NCBI RefSeq assembly: GCF_003334335.1
Contig: NZ_QOWQ01000108.1
Length of the DNA stretch: 1,364 bases
Strand: one strand, 5' to 3'
From: Escherichia coli
GTDB taxonomy: Bacteria > Pseudomonadota > Gammaproteobacteria > Enterobacterales > Enterobacteriaceae
Both the position numbers and the translations under genes were made by a program. Shown piece by piece: positions 1-1,364 of the stretch; position 1 is the stretch's first letter; each line of letters begins with the position of its first letter. The notes beneath the pieces were generated by a model that did no database searches, was not told the DNA's origin, and saw only the letters and a list, made by a program, of their open reading frames with translations.

Positions 1-1364
1 GTATGCGCCCCGGTGTTATTCGTGGATTTGGTTCCGTAATCAAACGACGATGTGTTTTTCGTCCCCAAATCCGTACTGGATGCGCTGGCGCTGTGGGTGT
101 GCGATTTAATGCCGTCCTGTTCCTGAGACAATACGGCACGACCACTGGCGGGTTTGCCCTTAATCGTCCAGCCACGCATATCAGGGATCACGGCTGACGG
201 ATAAGCGGCTGCAAGTTTCGGGTATGCAGATTTGTCAAAAGTCTGCCCCTGCATCAGGGCATAGCCAGACGGAACGGTATCTGATGGCCACGGGATTGGT
301 GCGCCAGGCGGATAAAACTGCTCTGATGGCGTATAGAGTGAATAAACTGTACCGTCCGTTAACCCTTCCGGCTTATTAGCAGAATATGCTGGTGACGTAT
401 GAATCGTCACGCTGGCATTACTGGTATAATCCCATTGAATATTTACACCAGTCGCATAATTTCCGATTGCAACGTAAATATCGTAAGTATCACCAGATGT
501 ATTGACCCAGGCAAAATTTGTAAACCCTGTCGATGTGCGCTGCCATAAAGCACCAGTAATCCCCTTCGGATTACCATTACCTGCACGCAAAACAAGTTCA
601 GATATACCTGCCTGTTGAGGTGACCCCACGTTAAATCCCGCACCACCAATCAACGTAATTGAAACAACAGAACTCGCCTGTGGCATGGTTACCGTTGCTA
701 ATTTGAACCAACCAGCACCACCGCTGAATGACATTGTTGTTGAGTTAAGCGTACCAATATCTTTCGGCGTCAGTGTTATATCCGCTGAAAGCGCCTTACC
801 ATTCACCTTACGGGCAGAAGGTACCCGACCATTCGCATTATCATTAGCTGCTTTCACTGCTTTCGGTGTCGCGGCAAGCGTTTCAGATGCGCTGTTGGTT
901 GCACTACTGAGCTGGACAATTCCTTTTTGTGCTGTCGTAGCGTCCTGAGCAGTATATTTCCCGTTAGCAAGGTCATAGGCTGCCTTTACCGACTTTGGCG
1001 TTGCCGCCAGCATTTCAGATGTGCTGTTGGTCGCGTTGCTAAGCTGAACTATCCCTTTCTGTGCTGTCGTTGCATCCTGTGCGGTGTATTTCCCGTTAGC
1101 CAGCTCATACGCGGCCTTAACGGCTTTTGGCGTTGCCGCCAGTGACTCGGAAGTGCTGTTAGTCGCACTGCTGAGCTGTACTATCCCCTTTTTCGTCGTG
1201 CTCGCATCCTCAAGCGCCACGGCGGATGCAATATCCTCTGCCCGTTTTGCCGCTGTCTCAGCGCGCGTTGCCGCGGATTCCGCCGTACTTTTGCTCTGAG
1301 CTGCCGCCGTCGCACTGCCAGCTGCCTCTGTCGCCTTCGTGGATGCCGTCGTGGCGCTGCCCTT
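1..1364 (-). CDS. stf: Side tail fiber protein, lambdoid Stf family; internal fragment, incomplete at both ends (N-terminus beyond 1364, C-terminus beyond 1)
   Basis: Seen in sequence: the minus-strand frame with codons 1362-1364 down to 3-5 has no stop in 454 codons (bases 1-2 are a partial Thr codon). Translation begins [102 protein letters not shown]... and ends ...[99 protein letters not shown]. Established knowledge: KGIVQLSxATNS repeats, the NGKALSxDITLT motif, the tail-collar motif and HxH boxes are hallmarks of lambda Stf and related prophage side tail fibers (StfR/StfE-like) and the T4 gp37 distal fiber. Match is from memory, not from a search. Confidence 0.9.
3..104 (-). other. Start of the His-rich distal fiber region: HxH motif SHTHSA (87-104) and the terminal GAH(T) that probably opens a second H-x-H box
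   Basis: Seen in sequence: His codons at 99-101 and 93-95 (minus strand, H-T-H) and at 3-5. Established knowledge: repeated HxH boxes occur in the distal parts of T4 gp37 and lambda Stf, and coordinate metal ions in the gp37 tip structure. Only the first box lies inside the window. Confidence 0.55.
93..311 (-). other. Phage tail-collar-like domain
   Basis: Seen in sequence: [73 protein letters not shown]. Established knowledge: the pattern P-x-G-(W/Y)...(Y/F)P.L......PD(L/M)RG....G....(H-x-H) is the signature of the phage tail collar domain found in T4 gp12 and lambda Stf-like fibers. Assignment is by motif recall. Confidence 0.65.
315..746 (-). other. Gly/Thr/Ser/Asn-rich central domain of the fiber, function unassigned, probably beta-rich
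   Basis: Seen in sequence: translation [145 protein letters not shown]-richer DNA than the flanking stalk and repeat region. Structure is inferred from composition. Confidence 0.5.
753..806 (-). other. Conserved tail-fiber motif [18 protein letters not shown] directly after the repeat array
   Basis: Seen in sequence: aa 187-204 of the fragment. Established knowledge: NGKxLSxxITLTxxDxG-type motifs recur in long and side tail fibers of lambda, P2 and T4-like phages. Confidence 0.6.
846..1190 (-). repeat. Three tandem in-frame coding repeats of about 132 bp (44 aa): copy 1 at 1059-1190, copy 2 at 927-1058, copy 3 (partial, diverging after KAA) at 846-926
   Basis: Seen in sequence: copy 1 [44 protein letters not shown]; copy 2 [44 protein letters not shown]; copy 3 [27 protein letters not shown] then NDNANGR. 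Copies 1 and 2 are about 90% identical in protein but only about 80% in DNA, the differences being mostly synonymous third-position changes. Established knowledge: this resembles the phage tail fiber repeat of Stf-like proteins. Confidence 0.85.
1200..1364 (-). other. Ala/Thr/Ser/Lys/Glu-rich low-complexity segment of the fiber (aa 1-55 of the fragment), probably helical stalk
   Basis: Seen in sequence: translation [55 protein letters not shown]. Locally GC-rich DNA: 41 of 60 bases (about 68%) are G or C at 1261-1320, against about 35-50% in 421-720. A helical or coiled structure is inferred from composition only. Confidence 0.55.

Follow-up and report, generated by a model that had tools for sequence, protein, structure and literature searches.

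A window of Escherichia coli DNA that most probably lies within stf, the side tail fiber gene of a lambda-like prophage

We analyzed a stretch of 1,364 nucleotides (nt) of Escherichia coli DNA (contig NZ_QOWQ01000108.1, assembly GCF_003334335.1), which we refer to as the window. This window is almost certainly the middle-to-distal part of stf, the side tail fiber gene of a lambda-like (lambdoid) prophage of E. coli. It codes for an internal 454 codons only, in agreement with an earlier note on this DNA, made from the sequence alone, according to which neither the start nor the stop of the gene is in view. The features that we recognize are listed below, with amino acid (aa) positions counted along the window protein.

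3..1364, minus strand: internal stf fragment of 454 codons, with no start and no stop (translation, nucleotide identity and PHROG 295)
1206..1364, minus strand: distal end of the Ala/Ser/Thr-rich stalk, aa 1-53 (composition and identity to StfR)
1074-1205, 942-1073 and 810-941, minus strand: three tandem 44-aa (132-nt) Phage_fiber_2 repeats, aa 54-97, 98-141 and 142-185 (Pfam PF03406)
768..803, minus strand: NGKAL motif, linking the repeats to the central module, aa 188-199 (read in the translation)
318..767, minus strand: central module, predicted all-beta and without a Pfam family, aa ~200-349
120..317, minus strand: tail-collar domain, aa ~350-415 (Pfam Collar and alignment to the T4 gp37 collar)
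193, minus strand: codon of aa 391, the only base differing from the best-matching genomes, G on the plus strand (alignment)
3..119, minus strand: start of a gp37-like needle (full-length relative aligned to 2XGF, and motif positions)
93-101, minus strand: HTH, the first HxH motif, aa 422-424 (translation)
27-47, minus strand: SFDYGTK, in the needle start (translation)
3-11, minus strand: GAH, whose His (aa 454) opens the next HxH in relatives (translation)
685-948, 927-1145 and 1084-1299, plus strand: antisense open reading frames (ORFs) of 71-87 aa, opposite the Ala/Ser-rich and repeat-coding part

Reading frame and domain layout

Translation of the minus strand in three frames gives a stop-free frame of 454 codons running from 1364 to 3, while the frames starting at 1363 and at 1362 have stops throughout. 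The chance of 454 codons without a stop, computed from base composition, is 4e-10, and among 500 shuffled sequences the longest open frame found over all six frames had a mean length of 115 codons and reached 230 at most. The earlier note had reported just such a stop-free minus-strand frame, and our re-translation from 1364 to 3 contains no stop. It had placed this frame at 1362..3, which was wrong, that frame being full of stops; the correct coordinates are 1364..3, and the error was probably a slip in which the length (454 x 3 = 1362 nt) was confused with a coordinate. We considered and rejected the stops in the literal 1362..3 frame as a refutation of the open frame, the frame described being 1364..3.

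When searched against PHROGs, the window protein matches phrog_295, "tail fiber protein," with E = 6.5e-147. This match, together with stretches of high identity to StfR, orf-401 and orf-314, upholds the assignment to Stf-type fibers made in the note. Profile searches, which it had named as a check, point the same way, with Pfam giving three Phage_fiber_2 matches and one Collar match in the minus-strand translation. In NCBIfam, no family matched the window protein, the complete Stf or its neighbor Tfa at E up to 0.001.

There is no hidden RNA or regulatory feature in the window. Rfam gave no match on either strand at a permissive threshold (E up to 1), a scan for sigma-70-like promoters found 0 sites, and the terminator-like sites number 2, against 1.6 expected by chance. 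These scans also bear on the plus strand, which carries ORFs of 64-87 aa, one of which (for instance 685-948, 87 aa) might be a real antisense gene nested in stf. The lambda record does annotate such an antisense gene, "orf206b," inside orf-401 (L002 5148-5768), but the ORFs seen here fall well under the shuffle mean for the longest chance ORF, the window is devoid of promoter-like sites and has terminator-like sites at the chance level, and RefSeq annotates nothing at this place in four genomes. Ala/Ser-rich, GC-biased coding sequence leaves the opposite strand open. We rejected the plus-strand ORFs as genes, given their length below chance expectation and their lack of annotation, and regard an antisense gene as having next to no likelihood.

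The hallmarks named in the note (stalk, repeats, NGKAL motif, central domain, collar and HxH) are all present in the order given there. The stalk part, aa 1-53, contains 20 Ala, 8 Thr and 7 Ser. In full-length relatives the stalk extends over approximately aa 100-460, with 87% A/S/T/E/K/Q in aa 101-460, and in lambda Stf residues 102-393 have been modeled as a proximal coiled coil (PMC12617516). Next come the three repeats, matched by PF03406 at aa 55-95, 99-139 and 143-183 (E = 1.5e-19 to 4.6e-19) and detected at the DNA level as a tandem array with a period of 132, 2.4 copies and 80% matches (Tandem Repeats Finder, TRF). Pairwise, the copies are identical at 30-37 of 44 aa and 79-100 of 132 nt, and the silent codon differences among them outnumber the amino acid-changing ones in each comparison (18 vs. 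7, 24 vs. 14 and 21 vs. 12), an excess that fits selection on a translated frame. A sequence search of the PDB showed that the repeats resemble residues 100-157 of the Mu tail fiber protein S (5yvq, E = 6.5e-8). The linker that follows is conserved in an alignment of homologs as NGKAL(S/T)ADI(T/K)LTPKDIG. Beyond the central module, the Pfam Collar profile PF07484 matches aa 354-401 (nt 162-305) with E = 1.5e-11, and the corresponding stretch of the full-length relative aligns closely, residue by residue, with the T4 gp37 collar in 2XGF. The only Pfam signal in the needle start is a weak Phage_fiber match at aa 417-430 (E = 0.15). Within the region coding for the central module there is also a 9-nt tandem repeat, CGTAAATAT, at 473-491 (2.1 copies, TRF score 31), which is most likely due to chance.

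The single-base difference at 193 falls in the collar and yields Ala in the window vs. Gly in the collar motif AYPSGVIPDMRG of strain Ecol_AZ155, of lambda-type relatives and of T4 gp37. The Ala allele at aa 391 is real, because the exact 61-mer recurs in 36 E. coli records, including CFSAN061771.

Gene context in near-identical relatives

We determined how widespread the window is by megablast against 5426 complete E. coli genomes. The whole window is found at 99.9% nt identity, with one mismatch, in more than 25 of them, at least 80% of it in 1314 and some part of it in 4083, and hundreds of genomes carry the segment with 99-100% conservation. Roughly one complete E. coli genome in four therefore contains most of the window, as a routine prophage structural gene. 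It is also an already known one: the gene carries a RefSeq annotation, is common in E. coli and is made of known modules.

In Ecol_AZ155, the window corresponds to bases 9001-10364 of the locus (L001), within a gene of 2976 nt that encodes a 991-aa protein annotated as "prophage tail fiber N-terminal domain-containing protein" (WP_046464134.1). The window covers residues 408-861 of this protein, with 407 codons upstream and 130 downstream, as the note had anticipated in predicting a protein much longer than 454 aa whose N terminus lies beyond 1364. In the near-identical relatives, stf encodes 988-991 aa and is annotated as a prophage tail fiber. Upstream of the Ecol_AZ155 gene are genes for the tape measure, a minor tail protein, L, a K-like peptidase, I, J (3480 nt) and lom, all intact. 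The order J–lom–stf–tfa is found in four E. coli strains (L001, L004, L005 and L007) at two chromosomal prophage sites, which places the gene in a lambdoid prophage tail cluster, as expected in the note. The Lom neighbor falls in phrog_108, and Tfa of the relatives is a 194-aa protein matching PHROG 105 (E = 1.2e-100). The stop of stf overlaps the start of tfa (L001 10755), so the earlier expectation of a tfa gene right after stf was correct, although its placement "just beyond" the 3' end of the window was too close, since tfa starts ~390 nt beyond window position 1.

The two sites differ in their surroundings. The Ecol_AZ155 prophage lies directly against a truncated ompW, beside yciE and the trp operon, whereas in CFSAN061771 (L007) the site is the Rac locus (ompN-uspF ... 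pinR-tfaR-stf-lom-J), where a 988-aa stf contains the window at 99.8% nt identity. At the first site, only a C-terminal remnant of ompW is annotated (L001 12976-13101), and a lysogen of the Ecol_AZ155 type is probably without intact OmpW unless the other prophage end rebuilds ompW. Between tfa and this remnant (L001 11312-12753, and also in L004 and L005) we observed a 138-nt "hypothetical protein" gene overlapping the 3' end of tfa, a convergent class I S-adenosylmethionine (SAM)-dependent methyltransferase, called YbcY-like in phage PhiR26_1, and then debris of a second tfa, a DUF4376 gene and DinI, followed by the truncated ompW. This debris points to past turnover of tail fiber modules at the prophage end.

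Such surroundings raise the possibility that the window stems from a prophage that is defective (cryptic) and that its gene, like stfR of the K-12 Rac prophage, is a decaying remnant unable to produce a functional fiber. One of the two loci with the window segment is indeed the Rac site, the annotation of the K-12 Rac prophage calls it cryptic, its lomR being interrupted by IS5, and pseudogene debris (partial tfa, DUF4376 and DinI) adjoins the prophage at the ompW site. Nevertheless, the 454 visible codons are intact, the relatives have a full-length stf and tfa after an intact tape measure, L, K-like peptidase, I, J and lom, the segment is almost invariant across hundreds of genomes, and silent changes exceed replacements between the repeats. 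We consider a decaying remnant unlikely, and a side tail fiber gene of a lambdoid prophage remains our favored reading.

Several points weigh against this assignment as a whole or limit its reach. 1) No complete genome in the collection of 5426 matches the window at 100% identity. 2) The window comes without flanks, and the flanks and gene context were read from relatives that differ from it by 1-3 bases over 1364 nt (99.8-99.9% identity). 3) The fiber is a predicted product of the gene, and the source prophage may or may not be inducible. 4) The role of the central module, drawn from a moderate-confidence model and generic fold matches, is not established. 5) Judging from the sequences of relatives, the receptor of the source gene cannot be read from the window.

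Central module and variable tip

The sole uncharacterized element of the window gene is the central beta-sandwich module. Between aa ~200 and 349 there is no match to any Pfam-A profile and no match to a solved structure (Foldseek against the PDB, E up to 0.001). A homology search with aa 184-353 retrieved 104 proteins, from E. coli, E. albertii, Salmonella and one Pseudomonas, all of them shorter than 300 aa and mostly labeled partial, which makes them fit for alignment and not for reading whole-protein architecture. Their alignment displays a conserved core and variable flanks, and the domains that follow the module differ, with the collar in this window, a Gp34_trimer-like piece in P0005 and a Gp10_C-like piece in P0078. 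Modeled as a monomer by AlphaFold2 on an alignment of 19 sequences, the module is predicted to adopt an all-beta fold of nine strands, at only moderate confidence (predicted local distance difference test [pLDDT] 64.7, predicted template modeling score [pTM] 0.64). A structure search of BFVD with this model retrieved other phage fibers, including Gp37 of Shigella phage JK38. On the strength of the model, we read the module as a putative portable beta-sandwich knob on the fiber.

A few of these proteins (P0008, P0018, P0033, P0041 and P0089) contain part of the tail fiber segment under names such as "terminase small subunit, partial," "antitermination protein, partial" and "phage holin family protein, partial," or carry Pfam domains of such kinds. 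They look like chimeric or misassembled gene calls at contig ends rather than real fusions.

Pairwise comparisons with lambda, K-12 StfR and PhiR26_1 revealed nothing matching aa ~137-343 of the window, a segment that consists of two extra repeats and the all-beta module. Relatives of the middle and distal modules were found instead in the P1-like phage JL22 (77% aa identity over aa 62-448), in Salmonella phage STYP1 (56% aa identity) and in the distal subunit of the long tail fiber of T-even phage F2 (55% aa identity over aa 180-454). By sequence comparison, the gene thus appears to be a typical tail fiber mosaic, in which a lambdoid shaft and tip flank an imported middle shared with P1-like and T-even fibers.

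The same relatives could be taken to mean that the window comes from a long tail fiber of a contractile-tailed or P1/P2/T-even-type phage (gp37, gpH or gpS-like) and not from a lambdoid Stf. Beyond the modules held in common with JL22, STYP1 and F2, the similarity of the repeats to Mu gpS and the BFVD match to JK38 Gp37 are in line with such an origin. However, all full-length near-identical matches (99.8-99.9%) sit in J-lom-stf-tfa prophage clusters, no phage record spans at least 80% of the window as DNA, and the stalk part, aa 1-92, is 91% identical to the lambdoid StfR, so that a non-lambdoid fiber is highly improbable. These observations favor a lambdoid stf that shares modules with other fibers.

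The remainder of the tip is visible in the full-length relative, which has seven HxH motifs, at aa 829, 861, 875, 931, 945, 954 and 963. Of these, the window includes the first, together with the His that opens the second. Searched by sequence against the PDB, this protein matched the receptor-binding tip of T4 gp37 over aa 744-991 (2XGF, E = 1.5e-81) and a 94-residue "Tail fiber protein" chain over aa 1-94 (PDB 9e7m, E = 1.6e-48). The His-rich tip that the note had placed downstream of the window is therefore there, the 130 further residues containing six more HxH motifs.

Comparison of the Ecol_AZ155 and CFSAN061771 genes showed ~100% identity across the whole window span, a drop to 23-43% nt identity at stf aa ~871-925, and a recovery to 84% or more over the returning needle strand and tfa. 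The divergent, hypervariable stretch begins just past window position 1 (L001 10364-10650 compared with L007, stf aa ~862-930). By analogy with gp37, this block between the outgoing and returning needle strands would be the receptor-binding head. An identical shaft, knob and collar are thus joined to different, unrelated heads in two prophages, one at the ompW site and one at the Rac site, and the natural recombination junction between them is sharp and lies only a few codons outside the window. Since the head differs between near-identical relatives, the window does not determine specificity. An identical 1.36-kb segment carrying two heads at two prophage sites marks a natural junction.

Proposed mechanism and comparison with known fibers

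The sequence, domain order, near-identity to relatives and gene context are direct evidence, and from Ur-lambda Stf and T4 gp37 we infer how the fiber might work. Ur-lambda Stf trimers are anchored by N-terminal domains that form a collar on the tail where gpV meets gpM, and they have a coiled-coil shaft and a gp37-like distal part (PMC12617516). They bind OmpC reversibly, making adsorption 10-30-fold faster before J binds LamB (PMC12617516). As in gp37, the C terminus of Stf consists of a collar, a six-stranded needle and an OmpC-binding head, and Tfa assists trimer assembly (PMC7291167). By this model, three copies of the ~990-aa protein would form one thin fiber, whose N-terminal ~94 residues, outside the window, would attach it to the tail tube, directly above the tip. 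The fiber shaft may be a coiled coil made of the long Ala/Ser-rich segment, whose end lies within the window, and the three 44-aa repeats and the beta-sandwich module would lengthen and decorate this shaft. The collar domain would start the distal receptor-binding tip, a putative six-stranded needle held by metal ions on stacked HxH motifs, the first of which is in the window. In gp37 the stacked HxH motifs reportedly bind iron ions, as Bartual et al. are said to have described for 2XGF in PNAS in 2010. A variable head, just outside the window, would contact a cell-surface receptor, and Tfa, from the gene immediately downstream, may aid folding of the tip. The fiber could thereby accelerate the initial, reversible attachment to the host, which precedes binding of the central J fiber to its own receptor.

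Lambda agrees in gene position, sharing the J–lom–stf–tfa arrangement. Ur-lambda Stf has 774 aa, and a frameshift in laboratory lambda splits the gene into orf-401 and orf-314. orf-401 is 85% identical to aa 1-286 of the full-length relative, its end is 77% identical to window aa 10-92, and orf-314 is 82% identical to window aa 351-454. Tfa of the relative is 94% identical to that of lambda, 95% to that of K-12 and 97% to that of PhiR26_1. The plan is shared as well, with an N-terminal tail anchor, a coiled-coil shaft and a gp37-like collar, needle and head (PMC12617516 and PMC7291167). However, the window-type Stf is ~215 aa longer than lambda Stf. It has three Phage_fiber_2 repeats, whereas only one repeat-length stretch aligned in lambda, and its ~150-aa beta-sandwich module was not found by pairwise comparison in lambda Stf, K-12 StfR or PhiR26_1 Stf. 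OmpC is the receptor of lambda Stf and of T4 gp37 on K-12. The head of the tip differs in sequence from that of lambda, and therefore OmpC binding cannot be assumed.

StfR of the cryptic Rac prophage of E. coli K-12 (b1372, 1120 aa) is 94% identical to the full-length relative over aa 1-494. Its aa 408-499 are 91% identical to window aa 1-92, and it is 96% identical to window aa 351-454. In contrast, where the window has aa ~93-350, StfR has a different and longer middle (its aa ~500-900), and its tip is only 78% identical. A similar exchange is seen in PhiR26_1, whose "side tail fiber protein" shows 92% aa identity to window aa 1-136 and 343-454, in the same J-lom-stf-tfa order as in the relatives, but with an unrelated ~240-aa segment replacing the middle ~200 aa. 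At the DNA level, PhiR26_1 covers 52% of the window, and PhiR68_2 and mEp460, whose genes bear the same "side tail fiber protein" annotation, cover ~52% of it at 94-95% nt identity; none of the phage records reaches 80% coverage.

Likeness to T4 gp37 is seen in the distal part, where the collar and also the HxH-bearing needle of the full-length relative show close residue-level alignment, the window covering the collar and the first ~45 needle residues of the tip seen in 2XGF. The head insert of gp37, between the outgoing and returning needle strands, is of other length and sequence. T4 is a contractile-tailed lytic phage, in which gp37 joins gp36 and not the tail tube, and gp37 needs gp57A and gp38, not a lambda-type Tfa.

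The practical value of these comparisons is modest, the gene being a further natural example of Stf modules (shaft, repeats, knob, collar-needle and variable head). Exchangeability of such modules has been used in chimeric STFs on engineered lambda particles for DNA delivery (PMC11338833).

Taken together, these comparisons place the window gene with lambda-type Stf, whose sequence and gene-order features are found in the window or its relatives. The full-length relative has the N-terminal ~90-aa StfN attachment domain, outside the window; the window itself has the Ala/Thr/Ser-rich shaft, then the three PF03406 repeats, and the collar with the first HxH; and in the relatives stf is positioned after J and lom, directly before its cognate tfa.

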